A stretch of 64,000 bases of DNA, taken from assembly GCA_026770705.1 (NCBI GenBank), contig JANJGN010000016.1, forward strand, positions 85,994,001-86,058,000, in the 5' to 3' direction. Positions within the stretch are counted from its first letter, which is position 1; each line of letters begins with the position of its first letter. The notes below the pieces were generated by a model. It saw nothing but the letters and a program-made list of their open reading frames with translations. It ran no database searches and was not told the DNA's origin. This stretch comes from Isurus oxyrinchus (taxonomy: Eukaryota). Below, piece by piece: positions 1 to 55,860 of the stretch. The translations under genes and the position numbers were made by a program.

Positions 1-3000
1 GTACACAGACTGGATTGTGAAATGTGATGTACCTGAGCACACAGACTGGATTGTGAAATGTGATGTACCTGAGTATACAGACTGGAATGTGAAGTGTGAT
101 GTACCTGAGTACACAGTCTGGATTGTGAAGTTTGGTGTACCTGAGTACACAGACTGGATTGTGAAGTGTGATGTACCTGAGTACACTGACTGGATTGTGA
201 AGTGTGATGTACCTGAGTAGACAGACTGGATTGTGAAGTGTGATGTACCTGAGTACACAGACTGGATTGTGAAGTGTGATGTACCTGAGTACACAGTCTG
301 GATTGTGAAGTGTGGTGTACCTGAGTACACAGACTGGATTGTGAAGTGTGATGTACCTGAGTACACTGACTGGATTGTGAAGTGTGATGTACCTGAGTAG
401 ACAGACTGGATTGTGAAGTGTGGTGTATCTGAGTACACAGACTGGATTGTGAAGTGTGATGTACCTGAGTACACAGACTGGATTGTGAAGTGTGAAGTAC
501 CTGAGTACACAGACTGGATTGTTAAGTGTGATGTACCTGAATACACAGACAGGATTGTGAAGTGTAATATACCTGAGTACACAGAATGGATTGTGAAGTG
601 TGTTGTACCTGAGTACACAGACTGGATTGTGAAGTGTGATGTACCTGAGTACACAGACTGGATTGTGAAGTGTGATGTACGTGAGTACACAGACAGGATT
701 TTGAAGTGTGATGTACGTGAGTACACAGACTGGATTGTGAAATGTGATGTAACTGAGTTCACAGACTGGATTGTGAAGTGTGATGTACCTGAGTACAGAG
801 ACTGGATTGTGATGTGTGGTGTACCTGAGTACACAGACTGGATTGTGAAGTGTGATGTACCTGAGTACACAGACTGGATTGTGAAATGTGGTGTACCTGA
901 GTACACAGACTGGATTGTGAAGTGTGATGTACGTGAGTACACAGACTGGATTTTGAAGTGTGATGTACGTGAGTACACAGACTGGATTGTGAAATGTGAT
1001 GTAACTGAGTTCACAGACTGGATTGTGAAGTGTGATGTACCTGAGTACAGAGACTGGATTGTGATGTGTGGCGTACCTGAGTACACAGACTGGATTGTGA
1101 AATGTGATGTACCTGAGTATACAGACTGGATTGTGAAGTGTGATGTACCTGAGTACACTGACTGGATTGTGAAGTGTGATGTACCTGAGTACAGACACTG
1201 GATTGTGAAGTGTGATGTACCTGAGTACACAGACTGGATTGTGAAGTGTGATGTACCTGAGTACACAGACTGGATTGTGAAGTGTGATGTAACTGAGTAG
1301 ACAGAATTGATTGTGTAGTGTGGTGTACTTGAGGACACAGACTGGATTTTGAAGTGTGATGTACATGAGTACACAGACTGGATTGTGAAATGTGATGTAA
1401 CTGAGTTCACAGACTGGATTGTGAAGTGTGATGTACCTGAGTACACAGACTGGATTTTGAAGTGTGATGTACGTGAGTACACAGAATGGATTGTGAAATG
1501 TGATGTAACTGAGTTCACAGACTGGATTGTGAAGTGTGATGTACCTGAGTACACAGACTGGATTTTGAAGTGTGATGTACGTGAGTACACAGAATGGATT
1601 GTGAAGTGTGATGTACCTGAGTACACAGACTGGATTGTGAAGTGTGGTGTACCTGAGTACACAGACTGAATTGTGAAGTGTGATGTACCTGAGTACACAG
1701 ACTTGATTGTGAATTGTGATGTACCTGAATACACAGACTGGATTGTGAAGTGTGGTGTACCTGAGTACACAGACTGGATTGTGAAGTGTGATGTACCTGA
1801 GTACACTGACTGGATTGCAAAGTGTGATTTACCTGAGTACACAGACTGGATTGTGAAGAGTGGTGTACCTGAGTACACAGACTGGATTGTGAAGTGTGGT
1901 GTTCCTGAGTACACAGACTGGATTGTGAAGTGTGATGTAACTGAGTACACAGACTGGATTGTGAAGTGTGATGTACCTGAGTACACAGACTGGATTTTGA
2001 AGTGTGATGTACCTGAGTACACAGACTGGATTGCAAAATGTGATGTACCTGAGTACACAGACTGGAATGCGAAGTGTGGTGTACCTGAGTACACAGACTG
2101 GATTGTGAAGTGTGGTGTTCCTGAGTACACAGACTGGATTGTGAAGTGTGATGTACCTGAGTACACAGACTGGATTGTAAAGTGTGATGTACCTGAGTAC
2201 ACAGACTGGATTGTGAAGTGTGATGTACCTGAGTACACAGACTGGATTGTGAAGTGTGGTGTACCTGAGTTCACTGACTGGATTGTGAAGTGTGATGTAC
2301 CTGAGTACAGACACTGGATTGTGATGTGTGATGTACCTGAGTACACAGACTGGATTGTGAAGTGTGATGTACCTGAGTACACAGACTGGATTGTGAAGTG
2401 TGATGTACCTGAGTACACAGACTGGATTGTTAAGTGAGATGTACCTGAGTACACAGACTGGATTGTGAAGTGTGATGTACATGAGTACACAGACTGGATT
2501 GTGAAGTGTGATGTACCTGAGTACACAGTCTGGATTGTGAAGTCTGATGTAGCTGTGTACACAGACTGGATTGTGAAGTGTGGTGTATCTGAGTACACAG
2601 ACTGGATTGTGAAGTGTGATGTACCTGAGTACACAGACTGGATTGTGAAGTGTGATGTACCTGAGTACACAGAATGGATTGTGAAGTGTGATGTACCTGA
2701 GTACACAGACAGGGTTGTGAAGTATGATGTACCTGAGTAGGCAGACTGGATTGTGAAGCGTTATGTACCTGAGTACACACACTGGATTGTGAAGTGTGAT
2801 GTTCCTGGGTACACAGACTGAATTGTGTATTGTGATGTATCTGTATACACTGACTGGACTGTGAACTGTGATGTATTTGAGTACGCAGACTGGATTGTGA
2901 GGAGTGATATAACTGAGTACACAGACTGGATTGTGAAGTGTGATGTACCTGAGTACTCAGAGTGGATTGTGAAGTGTGATGTACCTGAGTACACAGACTG

Positions 3001-6000
3001 GATTGTGAAGTGTAATGTACCTGAGTACACTGACTGCATTGTGAAGTGTGATGTACCTGAGTACACAGACTGTATTGTGAAGTGTGATGTACCTGAGTAC
3101 ACAGACTGGATTGTGAATTGTGATGTAACTGAGTACACAGTCTGGATTGTGAAGTGTGATGTAACTGAGTTCAGAGACTGGATTGTGAAGTGTGATGTAC
3201 CTGAGTACACTGACTGGATTGTGAAATGTGATGTACCCGAGTACACAGACTGGATTGTGAAGCGTGATGTACCTGAGTACACAGACTGGATTGTGAAGTG
3301 CAATGTACCTGAGTACACAGACTGGATTGTGAAGTGTGATGTACCTGAGTACACAGACTGGATTGTGAAGTGTAATGTACCTGAGTACACACACTGTATT
3401 GTGAAGTGTGATGTACCTGAGTACACAGACTGGATTGTGAAGTGTAATGTACCTGAAAACACAGATTGGATTGTGAAGTGTGATGTACCTGAGTACACAC
3501 ACAGGATTGTGAAGTGTGGTGTACCTGAGTACACAGACTGGATTGCAAAGTGTGATGTACCTGAGTACACAGACTGGATTGTGAAATGTGGTGTACCTGA
3601 GTACACAGACTGGATTGTGAAGTGTGGTGTTCCTGAGTATACAGACTGGATTGTGAAGTGTGATGTAACTGAGTAGACAGAGTTGATTGTGAAGTGTGAT
3701 GTACCTGAGTACACAGACTGGATTTTGAAGTGTGATGTACGTGAGTACACAGACTGGATTGTGAAATGTGATGTAACTGAGTTCACAGACTGGATTGTGA
3801 AGTGCGATGTATATGAGTATACAGACTGGATTGTGAAGTGTGATGTACCTGAGTACACAGACTGGATTGTTAAGTGTGTTGTACCTGAGTACACAGACTG
3901 GATTGTGAAGTGTAACATACCTGAGTACACAGACAGGATTGTGAAGTGTAATATACCTGAGTACACAGAATGGATTGTGAAGTGCGATGTACCTGAGTAC
4001 ACAGACTGGATTGTGAAGTGTGGTGTACCTGAGTACACAGACTGGATTTTGAAGTGTGATGTACGTGAGTACACAGACTGGATTGTGAAATGTGATGTAA
4101 CAGAGTTCACAGACTGGATTGTGAAGTGTGATGTACCTGAGTACAGAGACTGGATTGTGAAGTCTGGTGTACCTGAGTACACAGACTGGATTGTGAAGTG
4201 TGATGTACCTGAGTACCCAGACTGGATTGTGAAGTGTGGTGTACCTGAGTACACAGACTGGATTGTGAAATGTGATGTACCTGAGTACACAGACTGGATT
4301 GTGAAATGTGATGTACCTGAGTATACAGACTGGATTGTGAAGTGTGATGTACCTGAGTACACTGACTGGATTGTGAAGTGTGATGTACCTGAGTACAGAC
4401 ACTGGATTGTGAAGTGTGATGTACCTGAGTACACAGAATGGATTGTGAAGTGTGATGTACCTGAGCACACAGACTGGATTGTGAAGTGTGATGTACCTGA
4501 GTACACAGACTGGATTGTTAAGTGTGATGTACCTGAATACACAGACTGGATTGTGAAGTGTAATATACCTGAGTACACAGACAGGATTGTGAAGTGTAAT
4601 ATACCTGAGTACACAGAATGGATTGTGAAGTGTGATGTACCTGAGTACACAGACTGGATTGTGAAGTGTGGTGTACCTGAGTACACAGACTGTATTGCAA
4701 AGTGTGATGTACCTGAGTACACAGACTGGATTGTGAAGTGTGGTGTACCTGAGTACACAGACTGGATTGTGACGTGTGGTGTTCCTGAGTACACAGACTG
4801 GATTGTGAAGTGTGATGTAACTGAGTACACAGAATTGATTGTGAAGTGTGATGTACCTGAGTACACAGACTGGATTTTGAAGTGTGATGTACGTGAATAC
4901 ACAGACTGGATTGTGAAATGTGATGTAACTGAGTTCACAGACTGGATTGTGGAGTGTGATGTATCTGAGTATACAGACTGGATTGTGAAGTGTGATGTAC
5001 TTGAGTACACAGACTGGATTGTGAAGTGTGATGTACCTGAGTACACAGACTGGATTGTGAATTGTGATGTACCTGAATACACAGACTGGATTGTGAAGCG
5101 TGATGTACCTGAGTACACAGACTGGATTGTGAAGTGTGGTGTACCTGAGTACACAGACTGGATTGCAAAGTGTGATATACCTGAGTACACAGACTGGATT
5201 GCGAAGTGTGGTGTACCTGAGTACACAGACTGGATTGTCAAGTGTGGTTTTCCTGAGTATACAGACTGGATTGTGAAGTGTGATGTACCTGAGTACACAG
5301 ACTGGATTGTGAAGTGTGATGTACCTGAGTACACAGACTGGATTGTGAAGTGTGATGTACCTGAGTACACAGACTGGATTGTGATGTGTGGTGTACCTGA
5401 GTACACAGACTGGATTGTGAAGTGTGATGTACCTGAGTACACTGACTGGATTGTGAAGTGTGATGTACCTGAGTACAGACACTGGATTGTGAAGTGTGAT
5501 GTACCTGAGTACACAGACTGGATTGTGAAGTGTGATGTACCTGAGTACACAGACTGGATTGTGAAGTGTGATGTACCTGAGTACACAGACTGGATTGTTA
5601 AGTGTGATGTACCTGAGTACACAGACTGGATTGTGAAGTGTGATGTACCTGATTACACAGACTGGATTGTGAAATATGATGTACCTGAGTACACAGACAG
5701 GATTGTGAAGTGTGATGTACCTCAGTACACAGACTGGATTGTGAAGTGTGATGTACCTGAGTACACACACTGGATTGTGAAGTGTGATGTTCCTGGGTAC
5801 ACAGACTGAATTGTGAATTGTGATGTATCTGAATACACTGACTGGACTGTGAACTGTGATGTATTTGAGTACACAGACTGGATTCTGAGGTGTGATATAA
5901 CTGAGTACACAGACTGGATTGTGAAGTGTGATGTACCTGAGTACTCAGAGTGGATTGTGAAGTGTGATGTACCTGAGTACACAGACTGGATTGTGAAGTG

Positions 6001-46564: not shown

Positions 46565-46661
46565 GAGGAAGTGAAAGGTGCTGACGTGGTTCTCTCTGGG
46601 TGATACCATTTACATACTGAGGAACAGCCAGTGAGACTCTGACAGGCTGCAGCATTATAAA
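46565..46661 (+). promoter_or_regulatory. Ig light-chain V promoter: Ets-IRF composite GAGGAAGTGAAA (46565-46576), TGACGTGG (46582-46589), variant octamer ATTTACAT (46608-46615), TATAAA (46656-46661)
   Basis: The octamer-like motif is in light-chain orientation (ATTTGCAT, 7/8 match), 40 bp upstream of a TATA box that lies about 60 bp upstream of the leader ATG. Confidence 0.75.
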
Positions 46662-46721: not shown

Positions 46722-46770
46722 ATGATTTCAGCCATCCAGCTGATCTGGCCTCTGGCATTCTGCATCGCAG
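46722..46770 (+). CDS. Ig kappa-type light chain leader exon, MISAIQLIWPLAFCIA(G)
   Basis: Kozak context CACCATG, hydrophobic signal peptide, phase-1 donor CAG|GTACAA at 46771; splices in frame to V across a 186-bp intron. Not in the ORF track. Confidence 0.95.
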
Positions 46771-46956
46771 GTACAAATCTCTCTCCTTCCACCGTGAATA
46801 TTTTCCTGCTCTCCATTTCCAGCCAATTCGACTGACCTGTGATTGAAGGGAAAATGCTGAAAGCAGAGGAACGGTCACTGTCTCTAACAATATCTCATTT
46901 TACAGGCTCTTTGTGTGACAGTTCTTACTTCACACTGTTTCTCTATTACCCCTCAG

Positions 46957-47248
46957 GTATCAGTGGGGACATCACCATGACCCAGTCTCCCCTGGTGTCA
47001 GTGAGTCTGGGCCAGACCGCCACCATCACCTGTACGGCCAGTCAGTCTGTTAGCTATGTGAGTTGGTACCAGCAGCGAGAAGGACAGAAACCGACTCTCC
47101 TGATCTATGCTGCAACAACTCGATTCACAGGAACATCCGAGCGATTCACCGGCAGTGGATCTGGCACTCAATTCACCCTGACAATCAGCAATGTACAGAA
47201 TGAGGATGTCGCTGATTATTACTGTCAGCAAGGTTCCAGCTACCCCTA
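46957..47248 (+). CDS. IGKV: Germline Ig kappa-type V segment: [55 protein letters not shown]
   Basis: Acceptor CCTCAG|GT at 46956/46957; both Ig cysteines, [17 protein letters not shown] and D-x-A-D-YYC are present; no stop codons; followed by a 12-RSS. Resembles shark kappa (type III/NS4-like) V regions as I recall them. Confidence 0.96.
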
Positions 47249-47276
47249 CACAGTGATACAGAGCCTGACAAAAACC
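47249..47276 (+). other. 12-spacer recombination signal sequence of V
   Basis: CACAGTG + ATACAGAGCCTG (12 bp) + ACAAAAACC: perfect consensus heptamer and nonamer. V-12/J-23 is the kappa configuration. Confidence 0.99.
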
Positions 47277-47281
47277 TCAAT

Positions 47282-48563
47282 ACACACAGCACCATCTCCT
47301 GAACTGACACATCCCACAGTTATATAGAATATATAATAATGGACACACATTCCCACTTCCTGTACTGACACAACTCACAGTTATATAGAATATATAATAA
47401 TGGACACACAGTCCCACCTCCTGTACTGACACATCCCACAGTTATATAGAATATATAATAATGGACACACAGTCCCACCTCCTGTACTGACACATCCCAT
47501 AGTTATATAGAATATATAATAATGGACACGCAGCACCACCTCCTGTACTGACACATCCCACAGTTATATAGAATATATAATAATGGACACACAGTCCCAC
47601 CTCCTGTACTGACATATCCCACAATTATTTATAATATATAATGATGGACACACAGTCCCACCTCCTGTACTGATACATCCCACAGTTATATAGAATATAT
47701 AATAATGGACACACAGTCCCACCTCCTGTACTGACATATCCCACAATTATTTATAATATCTCATGATGGACACACAGTCCCTCCTCCTGTACTGATACAT
47801 CCCACAGTTATATAGAATATATAATAAAGGACACACAGCACCATCTCCTGTACTGATACATCCCAATTATATAGAATATATAATAATGGACACACAGCTC
47901 CACCTCCTGTACTGATACATCCCACAGTTATATAGAATATATAATAATGGACACACAGTCCCACCTCCTGTACTGACATAGCCCACAATTATTTATAATA
48001 TATAATGATGCACACACAGTCCCACCTCCTGTACTGATATATCCCACAATTATTTATAATATATAATAATGGACACACAGTCCCACCTCCTGTACTGACG
48101 TATCCCACAATTATTTATAATATATAATGATGGACAGACAGTCCCACCTCCTGTACTGATACATCCCACAATTATATAGAATATATAATAATGGACACAC
48201 AGCTCCACCTCCTGTACTGATACATCCCACAGTGATATAAAATATATAATAATGGACACACAGTCCCACCTCCTGTACTGATACATCCCACAGTTATATA
48301 AGAATATATAATAATGGACACACAGCTCCACCTCCTGTACTGATACATCCCACAGTTATATAGAATATATAATAATGGACACACAGTCCCACCTCCTGTA
48401 CTGACATATCCCACAATTATTTATAATATATAATGATGGAAACACTGTCCCACCTCCTGTACTGACAGATCCCACAGTTATACAGAATATATAATAATGG
48501 ACACACAGTCCCACCCCCTGTACTGACACATCCCACAGTTATATATAATATATAATAATGGTC
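47282..48563. repeat. 61-bp minisatellite in the V-J interval (GGACACACAGTCCCACCTCCTGTACTGACACATCCCACAGTTATATAGAATATATAATAAT), about 21 copies
   Basis: Read directly; begins 5 bp after the V nonamer. Confidence 0.97.
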
Positions 48564-48688
48564 ACTTTACCTCTTACCCTCCATGTCCACATATGAAGAG
48601 CAGCTGAAAGATTTATCAGATAAAATCAGGATTCTCAACTCTTGGAACAAAAAAAGACATTGAGAGGAAGAGAGAGGAAAAGGGCGAG

Positions 48689-49757
48689 AGTTAAAGGTGA
48701 GTGTGAGTGAGAGACAGAGGGTGAGAGTGAGTTAAAGGTGAGTGTGAGTGAGAGACAGAGAGAGGGTGAGAGTGAGTTAAAGGTGAGTGTGAGTGAGAGA
48801 CAGAGAGAGGGTGAGAGTGAGTTAAAGGTGAGTGTGAGTGAGAGACAGAGAGGGTGAGTGTGAGTGAAAGGTGAGTGTGAGTGAGAGACAGAGAGAGGGT
48901 GAGAGTGAGTTAAAGGTGTGTGTGAGTGAGAGACAGAGAGAGGGTGAGAGTGAGTTAAAGGTGAGTGTGAGTGAGAGACAGAGAGAGGGTGAGAGTGAGT
49001 TAAAGGTGAGTGTGAGTGAGAGACAGAGAGAGGGTGAGAGTGAGTTAAAGTTGAGTGTGAGTGAGGGACAGAGAGAGGGTGAGAGTGATTTAAAGGTGAG
49101 TGTGAGTGAGAGACAGAGAGAAGGTGAGAGTGAGTTAAAGGTGAGTGTGAGTGAGAGACAGAGAGAGGGTGAGAGTGAGTTAAAGGTGAGTGTGAGTGAG
49201 AGACAGAGAGGGTGAGTGTGAGTGAAAGGTGAGTGTGAGTGAGAGACAGAGAGAGGGTGAGAGTGAGTTAAAGGTGTGTGTGAGTGAGAGACAGAGAGAG
49301 GGTGAGAGTGAGTTAAAGGTGAGTGTGAGTGAGAGACAGAGAGAGGGTGAGAGTGAGTTAAAGGTGAGTGTGAGTGAGAGACAGAGAGAGGGTGAGAGTG
49401 AGTTAAAGTTGAGTGTGAGTGAGGGACAGAGAGAGGGTGAGAGTGATTTAAAGGTGAGTGTGAGTGAGAGACAGAGAGAAGGTGAGAGTGAGTTAAAGGT
49501 GAGTGTGAGTGAGAGACAGAGAGAGGGTGAGAGTGAGTTAAAGGTGAGTGTGAGTGAGAGACAGAGAGAGGGTGAGAGTGAGTTAAAGGTGAGTGTGAGT
49601 GAGAGACAGAGGGTGAGAGTGAGTTAAAGGTGAGTGTGAGTGAGAGACAGAGAGAGGGTGAGAGTGAGTGAAAGGTGAGTGTGAGTGAGAGACAGAGAGA
49701 GGGTGAGAGTGAGTTAAAGGTGAGTGTGAGTGAGAGACAGAGAGAGGGTGAGAGTGA
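48689..49757. repeat. 45-bp purine-rich minisatellite (GTTAAAGGTGAGTGTGAGTGAGAGACAGAGAGAGGGTGAGAGTGA), about 24 copies, with a 358-bp higher-order duplication
   Basis: 15-codon periodicity in the ORF track; ORF starts at 48871 and 49229 are 358 bp apart and share variants. Confidence 0.97.
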
Positions 49758-49778
49758 CTGAATGAAGCAGAGAGCTGA

Positions 49779-49817
49779 GGTTTTTGTACAGCCCCTGCAC
49801 TGGAATCTCTCAGTGTG
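49779..49817 (-). other. 23-spacer RSS of J
   Basis: GGTTTTTGT (49779-49787) + 23 bp + CAGTGTG (49811-49817). The nonamer is perfect and the heptamer is 6/7 with the critical CAC retained. Confidence 0.97.
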
Positions 49818-49852
49818 GGTTACATTCGGTAAAGGAACCAAACTCAGACTGA
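49818..49852 (+). CDS. IGKJ: Ig light-chain J segment, VTFGKGTKLRL(S)
   Basis: FGxG motif after the 23-RSS; perfect phase-1 donor A|GTAAGT at 49853. Not in the ORF track. Confidence 0.97.
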
Positions 49853-50563
49853 GTAAGTAAACCCCAATCCTCCCTTATTAACCCTTTCAATACTGAAACT
49901 TTCTCAAACACTAATGCTGAATAGTTGAAGGCGTTAGTGAGGAGCTGCAGTGAATGAAATGGTTCAGCGAACAACCCTGTATATAACAAGGTGCCCAGCT
50001 GTATTTCTTTCATTACATTCCCCCCTTTAAGCAGCAAGATAGAAATAACCAACTTTTACCCACCGTCTAGAGGAGATCTGGACGTTTGCAGACTGTGCTG
50101 ACATTGCTGCACCATGGACTGAAATCACTCACTAGACTCCTGTCAGCCTCAGTGTGACAGACACGGGCAGAGTTTGATATGAGCTCCGGCTCCCTCTCAC
50201 AGTCTCTGATATAACTGATCACAGCACCAGCACAGTGAGACACCGAGGTCCCACCTCCCCCAGCTTGAACTCTGCTCTCTCCACTCCCTGGTTGTCTCTT
50301 GGCAAATTTCTGATGACAAACAGGTAGAGCAGGGCCCACAATCCAGTGGCTTCAGTGTTCCAGGGTTTCGGGGAGACTCTCCGTTTCCCCCGAATGTTGA
50401 AATGTCACCCTCTAGACTCCAGGCCTCCCGGAATCTGCTCTCCATCTCTCTCCTGAACACACTGTCTCTGACTGGGGAACAGCTCCACCCTCCCCAAGTG
50501 GGCTCATTCCTCCAAGTGTGAGGCGGGAGGGTGAACATGACAGGCTATTGGACCGTGAGATGT

Positions 50564-55531: not shown

Positions 55532-55860
55532 GCAGAGAGAAGTCACCACCCACAGTGACCCTGCTGCCCCCCTCCCCAGAGGAGGTCAAGACCAAGGGCA
55601 CTGCCACCCTGGTGTGCCTTGCCAATCACTTCTATCCCGATGAGGTGAAGGTGGAGTGGAAGAAGGACGGTGCAGCCATTTCGGACGGGGTTCAGACCAG
55701 CAACTACCTGCGAGCTTCAGACAGCACCTACAGCGTCAGCAGCCTGCTGACCCTCTCTGGCTCCGGCTGGGAGTCCAACGCCAGCTTCTCCTGTGTCGTC
55801 ACCCACGAGAGTCTTTCCTCTCCCCTCAGCAAGAGCATCAGGAGATCAGAATGTGCGTAG
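55532..55860 (+). CDS. IGKC: Ig kappa-type constant exon, (S)REKSPPTVTLLPPSPEEV..ATLVCLANHFYP..EWKKDG..STYSVSSLLTL..FSCVVTHESLSSPLSKSIRRSECA*
   Basis: Polypyrimidine tract and TTTCAG acceptor at 55531; phase matches J (A+GC = Ser); C1-set Cys/Trp/FSCxxxH motifs, penultimate inter-chain Cys, TAG stop. The ORF-track N-terminus (55351-55531) is intronic. Confidence 0.98.

Follow-up and report, generated by a model that had tools for sequence, protein, structure and literature searches.

The window analysed here, a stretch of 64,000 nucleotides, contains an unrearranged light-chain cluster with one V, one J and one C, in which the V carries a 12-RSS and the J a 23-RSS (Table 1). The best PDB matches of the V are antibody light chains, several of them named kappa, and the cluster shows an NS4-like leader intron of 186 bp, an FR1 primer site and a kappa-like V; its assignment to the NS4/kappa type rests on these features and on the PDB matches. 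The nurse shark NS4 (type III) light chain is taken here to be kappa. The read runs used are probably RNA, as supported by spliced leader-V and J-C joints, and in all four runs aligned to the paralogous cluster L054 the leader-V joint skips 186 bases. None of 100 shuffled sequences matches the V 12-RSS. On its upstream side the cluster abuts a 36-bp satellite of approximately 1,050 copies (window 1-37894), and it is also flanked by VNTRs of 55, 44, 69 and 28 bp. Besides the 61-mer and the 45-mer described below, the window holds four multi-copy repeats with units of 28-55 bp.

Table 1. Features of the kappa-type cluster, in window coordinates.
Feature	Position	Strand	Remarks
Octamer-like promoter motif	46608..46615	+	1 mismatch
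Leader exon	46722..46770	+	followed by a 186-bp intron, 46771-46956
Kappa-type V exon	46957..47248	+	open frame
V 12-RSS	47249..47276	+	CACAGTG-12-ACAAAAACC; heptamer and nonamer perfect
TCAAT linker, RSS to array	47277..47281	+	5 bp; identical in 24/25 clusters
61-bp VNTR	47282..48561	+	21 units; from repeat finding and unit parsing
Lone perfect CACAGTG	48228..48234	+	unit 16; 1/416 units; nonamer there still 3/9
Unique middle spacer, short form	48562..48687	+	without the older end unit and flank retained in L037, L050 and L052
45-bp GA/GT-rich VNTR	48688..49757	+	24 copies, not RSS-like; consensus 5' splice donors in units, the first at 48697
J 23-RSS	49779..49817	-	CACACTG-23-ACAAAAACC; convergent with the V RSS and the array heptamers
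Single J segment	49818..49852	+	J-C splice evidence in contigs
C exon	55532..55860	+	open frame

Five bases after the V 12-RSS begins a tandem array, to which Tandem Repeats Finder assigns a period of 61, 21.1 copies and 90% matches (47282-48565). Each 61-bp unit consists of a 33-bp C-rich half and a 28-bp RSS-like half beginning with CACAGTT. With head-to-tail units in the range of 10-100 bp and a copy number that varies among paralogues, the array belongs to the minisatellites (VNTRs). A sequence-only reading of this DNA had described an array of about 21 units behind the V RSS, with heptamer-like motifs all oriented like that RSS and a nonamer position matching only 3/9, and this description is borne out. 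Both elements lie where it had placed them, the consensus unit carries all five of its CAC motifs on the strand of the V RSS and none on the opposite strand, and the nonamer position scores 3/9 in 15 of the 21 units in the window and in 364 of the 416 units found across the locus. Locus-wide, the CACAGTT heptamer is present in 344 of these 416 units and its CAC is intact in 383, while A5-A7 of the nonamer are intact in only 13. Compared with a functional 12-RSS, the amplified unit thus has a CAC-initiated heptamer and lacks an A-tract nonamer at 12-bp spacing.

Other parts of the earlier description need revision. Two motifs had been viewed as kept from the ancestral RSS, namely the perfect CACAGTG of unit 16 and the spacer start ATACAGA near 48480. 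Both are present, the latter in unit 20 (heptamer at 48473), but their retention is not supported, since ATACAGA occurs in 6 of the 416 units and CACAGTG in one alone, so that the latter is most likely a fresh point change. The RSS had also been regarded as a "unit zero" in register with the array. Instead, the 33 + 28 bp phase starts after TCAAT, and as cluster L054 holds exactly one such unit, the real RSS is dispensable as an array member. Two other structural readings of the repeat were set aside. Read as a 23-RSS, the 61-mer offers a nonamer of 6/9 with a broken A-tract, in the same orientation as the V RSS; and the hairpin formed by two units is ordinary (z = -1.0).

Genome-wide, 25 V and 25 J of this type pair one to one on contig C16, at 85.79-88.47 Mb. 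All 25 V matches are without a stop, none of the 25 genes is germline-joined in the assembly, and C lies within 10 kb in 24 of the 25 clusters, a count that concerns DNA presence only, the query being an off-frame translation of the C exon. The array follows directly on the RSS plus 5 bp in every cluster and ranges from 1 to 69 units, 416 in total. Pattern searches of the genome return 393 matches to the RSS-like half and 277 to the C-rich one, and 391 and 277 of these, respectively, fall inside the 25 clusters and one orphan array; the two remaining matches form a small insertion 33 Mb away. The wide occurrence of the 61-mer away from Ig loci, which the first description had raised against its own account, is therefore not seen. 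Among 45 other V genes scanned, several of which are germline-joined or have no called RSS, none is followed by an RSS-like array. A tandem 61-mer junction is present in a second species too (read run X20). A search limited to the open-access literature and bioRxiv found no report of the repeat. The orphan array (L055, contig C16 85.714-85.717 Mb) lies at the locus edge and consists of approximately 15 units, interrupted by about 1.1 kb of inserted sequence, and its right flank is unrelated. It was considered as the remnant of a broken cluster, and rejected as such because neither V nor J nor C lies within 50 kb.

The copy number changes rapidly. In a tree of the J-C intron, clusters with 1, 2, 13 and 29 units group together on branches shorter than about 1% (support 83/95); the one-unit cluster L054, nested among them, is thus likely a contraction and was rejected as the ancestral state. 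Units are as alike between clusters (92.6% identity) as within them (93.0%), whereas the older flanks of L037, L050 and L052 are merely 81-85% alike, and these figures together fit a fast turnover of the 61-mer with exchange between clusters. In the 69-unit array of L037, long internal block repeats recur as matches about 1.9 kb apart, representing either a true higher-order duplication or an assembly error. The 45-bp VNTR before J varies as well, from 2 to 33 copies, independently of the 61-mer number (rho 0.20, p 0.34). Across the 25 clusters the span from RSS to RSS ranges from 553 to 6,070 bp, that is, elevenfold. In L047 the middle spacer is deleted, which brings the 61-mer and 45-mer arrays into direct contact; by eye, this junction shows an apparent short shared stretch and a small inverted 45-mer copy.

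The 45-mer was also tried as a copy of the J RSS and rejected, its heptamers matching 3-5/7 and its nonamers at 23-bp spacing 2-4/9. Exact matches to the splice donor AAGGTGAGT number 20 in 47201-49900. One contig of run X2 joins the first 45-mer donor (region L054:919-1028) to the C exon, forming a J-less sterile transcript. Such a transcript resembles mammalian germline kappa transcripts.

The derivation of the array from the V RSS, as originally proposed, finds moderate support. In a global alignment anchored by position, the RSS fits the unit better than expected (82 of 20,000 shuffles and 125 of 20,000 background 28-mers reach its score; p ~0.005). This test compares the sequence that precedes the first 33-bp half with that preceding the later ones, and so suits a hypothesis of tandem duplication. 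By contrast, a free gapped local alignment of the 33-bp RSS plus linker with the unit is no better than chance, 640-1,453 of 10,000 shuffles and 234 of 1,950 background windows scoring as high. A 12/14 match over heptamer and spacer (60/20,000 shuffles; 7/1,950 background windows) was picked post hoc and carries little weight. The 33-bp half was rejected as a decayed V 3' end, with 564-3,616 of 5,000 shuffles being as good.

An older end unit provides further evidence. It is retained with its flank in three of the 25 clusters (L037, L050, L052); the flank is shortened in 21 and lost in L047. After the hexamer, the three older units match the RSS at 16, 16 and 17 of 26 bases with one gap, a level that none of 71 background CACAGT sites reaches and that 37, 39 and 11 of 1,500 shuffled tails attain. 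The amplified consensus matches at merely 13 of 26, with 12 of the 71 background sites as good, which counts against an RSS origin. The older units have a 5/9 nonamer at exactly 12 bp, including A5-A7 and C8, and a heptamer of at least 6/7 together with such a nonamer occurs 5 times per 269,892 background strand-bases. One of the three has a heptamer of only 5/7, and, sharing ancestry, they amount to approximately one test, not three independent ones. A contig of the second species covers the older unit with 16 differences in 100; the nine of them that are listed leave the heptamer and nonamer positions 5-8 unchanged. Given the anchored alignment, the confinement of the repeat to the kappa locus and the more RSS-like older unit in 3/25 clusters, an RSS origin of the 61-mer is likely, if not proven. 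The older middle flank has a separate counterpart on contig C10 at 71.47 Mb (L144), where 53 bp are matched at 87%, which suggests an old repeat as the source of part of the flank.

Whether RAG would use such units can be gauged from published assays and from the conservation of the heptamer. Among the SARP-seq plasmid joints given in the available part of PMC9723617, CACAGTTAT accounts for 0.067% and CACAGTGAT for 1.14%. From rows of the same source, CACAGTTAT with the weak LMO2 nonamer yields 30 reads, compared with 1,114 x 15 when the real heptamer is paired with a consensus nonamer, or approximately 0.18%, a figure that assumes the "pMAX" column to be a 1:15 spike-in and that stems from core RAG in HEK 293T cells, not from shark. 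Weak nonamers scale recombination down, according to the available text of PMC12205992. Because the array nonamer is poorer than that of LMO2, 0.18% is a ceiling, and each unit is predicted to have about 0.2% of the RAG activity of the real RSS, or less. Summed over all units, the ceiling comes to about 4% in an array of 21 and to 12% in one of 69, which is not negligible. Within the heptamer, the three CAC positions deviate 11, 11 and 19 times, where the median position of the unit deviates 11 times, meaning that CAC is no better conserved than its surroundings; for the heptamer as a whole, the comparison with the remaining positions gives p=0.99 when deviations are counted and 0.84 when clusters are. 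A signal conserved above its surroundings, as is characteristic of KDE/RS-type elements, is thus not found in the 61-mer.

Junctions in the probable RNA runs agree with use of the true RSS. All seven V-J junction contigs, from four runs, are ordinary V-to-J joints; contigs drop rare joins, which makes this a weak test. Joins of the array to J number 0/7 in these same contigs, which lose rare variants, and 0/25 among the germline clusters. Four further runs on a cluster with a divergent J list no array-J joint, with J cover absent in two of them. One V-J junction carries a V end unique to the 69-unit cluster (1/25 V ends), in a different animal whose allele may differ in length. Low-level cryptic joining of the array to J may nevertheless occur.

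One fragment of the array has left the locus. At 52.63 Mb of contig C16 (L141:4870-4995), 33 Mb from the clusters, two 61-mer units are inserted in a high-copy repeat. The insertion begins at the first heptamer base, as a RAG signal end would, and shows 3-4 bp of microhomology, the loss of 6-7 bp of the host repeat, no target-site duplication and an AT-rich stutter at its end. These features fit ordinary break repair at least as well as a RAG cut.

It is reasonably probable, on the evidence above, that the array is a locus-specific 61-bp minisatellite which likely arose from an old, decayed duplicate of the V 12-RSS and its preceding bases, and which is most likely a neutral passenger. The order of the events that follow is inferred. 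An old duplication would have left a second RSS-like element approximately 60 bp past the real RSS, and this element would survive as the end unit in 3/25 clusters and in a related species. Slippage or unequal crossover would then have created the 61-bp unit and replaced the nonamer end, so that a 5/9 nonamer with an A-tract gave way to a 3/9 one without. Subsequent fast turnover of the copy number is visible as a pattern, and units from different clusters resemble each other as much as units of one cluster do, which unequal exchange and gene conversion would predict. The array lies in the DNA deleted by V-J joining. In nearly all cases, RAG is predicted to choose the true V 12-RSS as the partner of the J 23-RSS, and the array would then leave on the excision circle; cryptic J-to-array joins would make up a few percent at most and have no selected value. 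No cluster of the 25 is without any unit, which counts against neutrality to the extent that selection for retention would give the same picture. Unequal crossing-over, for its part, cannot remove the last copy of a repeat.

The origin and the neutrality of the array can each be disputed. Its likeness to an RSS could be an accident, in that a neutral 61-bp VNTR behind the RSS happened to contain a CACAGTT-ATATAGA stretch. This reading, to which a modest share of the probability is assigned, is consistent with the failure of the free alignment to exceed shuffles or background, with the frequency of a 6/7 heptamer plus a nonamer of at least 3/9 (138 times per 269,892 strand-bases), with an array that starts after TCAAT and is reduced in L054 to one whole unit excluding the RSS, and with a 33-bp half not copied from the V end. 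However, it leaves unaccounted for the anchored alignment (p ~0.005), the older end units, which exceed all 71 background sites, and their exact 12-bp spacing with A5-A7, which is rare in the background. A rival of another kind accepts the repeat as it is and gives it an effect that involves no cutting: by shifting the V-J span (0.55-6.1 kb) and bringing in AT-rich tracts and splice donors, the two VNTRs could alter accessibility or sterile transcription, with a bias in cluster use as a by-product. The span of 553-6,070 bp against approximately 500 bp in the portion of the nurse shark NS4 study consulted (PMC2193156) is in keeping with this, as are array and 45-mer sequences in the probable RNA runs, including the J-less transcript spliced from 45-mer to C. 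On the other side, contig depth cannot rank genes by usage, and the V-J contigs include V ends from clusters with 12 units, with 12 or 21, and with 69. Such an effect is improbable.

The decoy field put forward by the sequence-only reading is rated lowest and considered very improbable. It supposes that array heptamers capture and delete the J 23-RSS, which would silence the cluster, and that the number of copies tunes the light-chain yield. The geometry allows it, as the heptamers are convergent with the J RSS and a deleting join is possible, and the intact CAC of 383/416 units, the array in 25/25 clusters and in a second species, the summed ceiling of 4-12% in long arrays and the start of the far insertion at a heptamer are all in its favour. 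RAG also cuts repeat-borne cryptic RSSs in mouse gamma-satellite DNA, as reported in the accessible text of PMC2193808. Against these points, CAC is conserved no more than other positions, only one unit has the perfect heptamer, and the RAG activity predicted for each unit is about 0.2% or less. The amplified unit resembles an RSS less than the older end unit does and has a worse nonamer. Copy number jumps from 1 to 29 among near-identical sister clusters, array-J joins are seen in 0/7 junction contigs (a weak test) and 0/25 germline clusters, one V-J contig carries the V end of the 69-unit cluster, and the distant insertion shows microhomology of 3-4 bp and lacks a target-site duplication. 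The proposed function in tuning usage is thus not supported on present evidence. A bolder combination, in which copy number (1-69 weak RAG targets plus the elevenfold V-J distance) serves as a dial on cluster use or burn-out and RAG cuts in germ cells threw at least one piece 33 Mb away, is a speculation of low probability.

As a passenger that probably grew from a recombination signal, the 61-mer can be compared with several known systems. In the available text on nurse shark NS4 (PMC2193156), the leader intron measures 186 bp and the V-J interval is nearly constant at 502-524 bp. The single V-J-C clusters, the 186-bp leader intron and the FR1 primer site are shared with the present locus, whose shortest span is 553 bp including both RSSs (PMC2193156). 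By contrast, approximately 10% of the NS4 genes are germline-joined against 0/25 here, and the word "repeat" is absent from the paper in the form available, whereas here two VNTRs accompany an elevenfold range of intervals (PMC2193156). For shark IgH, intersegment distances are about 400 bp, and cryptic signals go unmentioned in the accessible part of the source (PMC2435157).

Mouse gamma-satellite DNA is likewise a tandem repeat with CAC-initiated RSS-like motifs, and its authors too consider that it might serve as a safe sink for RAG breaks (PMC2193808, in the part available). It differs in its 23-spacer signals with near-physiological RIC scores, in demonstrated cleavage and in its genome-wide spread (PMC2193808); the 61-mer lies inside an Ig locus, is likely RSS-derived, has a 3/9 nonamer and is known here from sequence alone. 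The 37-bp VNTR in intron 7 of human F7, as described in the accessible text, is also a minisatellite grown from a functional signal, with downstream pseudo-sites that are normally silent (PMC1557585). However, it copies a splice donor, the pseudo-sites are all functional and identical, and its array opens with the true site (PMC1557585), while the 61-mer copies have decayed and an offset of 5 bp puts the true RSS out of register.

A further parallel is found in the kappa locus of mammals. The kappa intron RSS there consists of a heptamer only. Together with KDE (RS) it represents a non-coding RSS-like site that silences the kappa locus upon recombination, according to the available part of PMC12443594. 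KDE is one conserved site, used in approximately 30% of kappa B cells, and deletes C (PMC12443594); the 61-mer, by contrast, offers many unconserved sites between V and J, with no use seen in seven contigs.

The locus amounts to a natural experiment, with 25 near-identical clusters that have nearly the same true RSSs and differ elevenfold in V-J distance and 69-fold in the number of pseudo-signals. Whether light-chain choice in a multicluster locus depends on distance or on cryptic heptamers could be learnt from a single genotyped shark. The array itself would document the path of a recombination signal through duplication and decay to amplification; the decoy reading, if true, would add a new way of setting antibody gene usage by repeat number. 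Single clusters also depart from the rest in their coding or signal sequences. In L046 and L051, YSC replaces YYC before CDR3 and the RSS spacer is changed, L052 differs in its J heptamer and in the start of its J, and the V heptamer of L034 reads CACTGTG.
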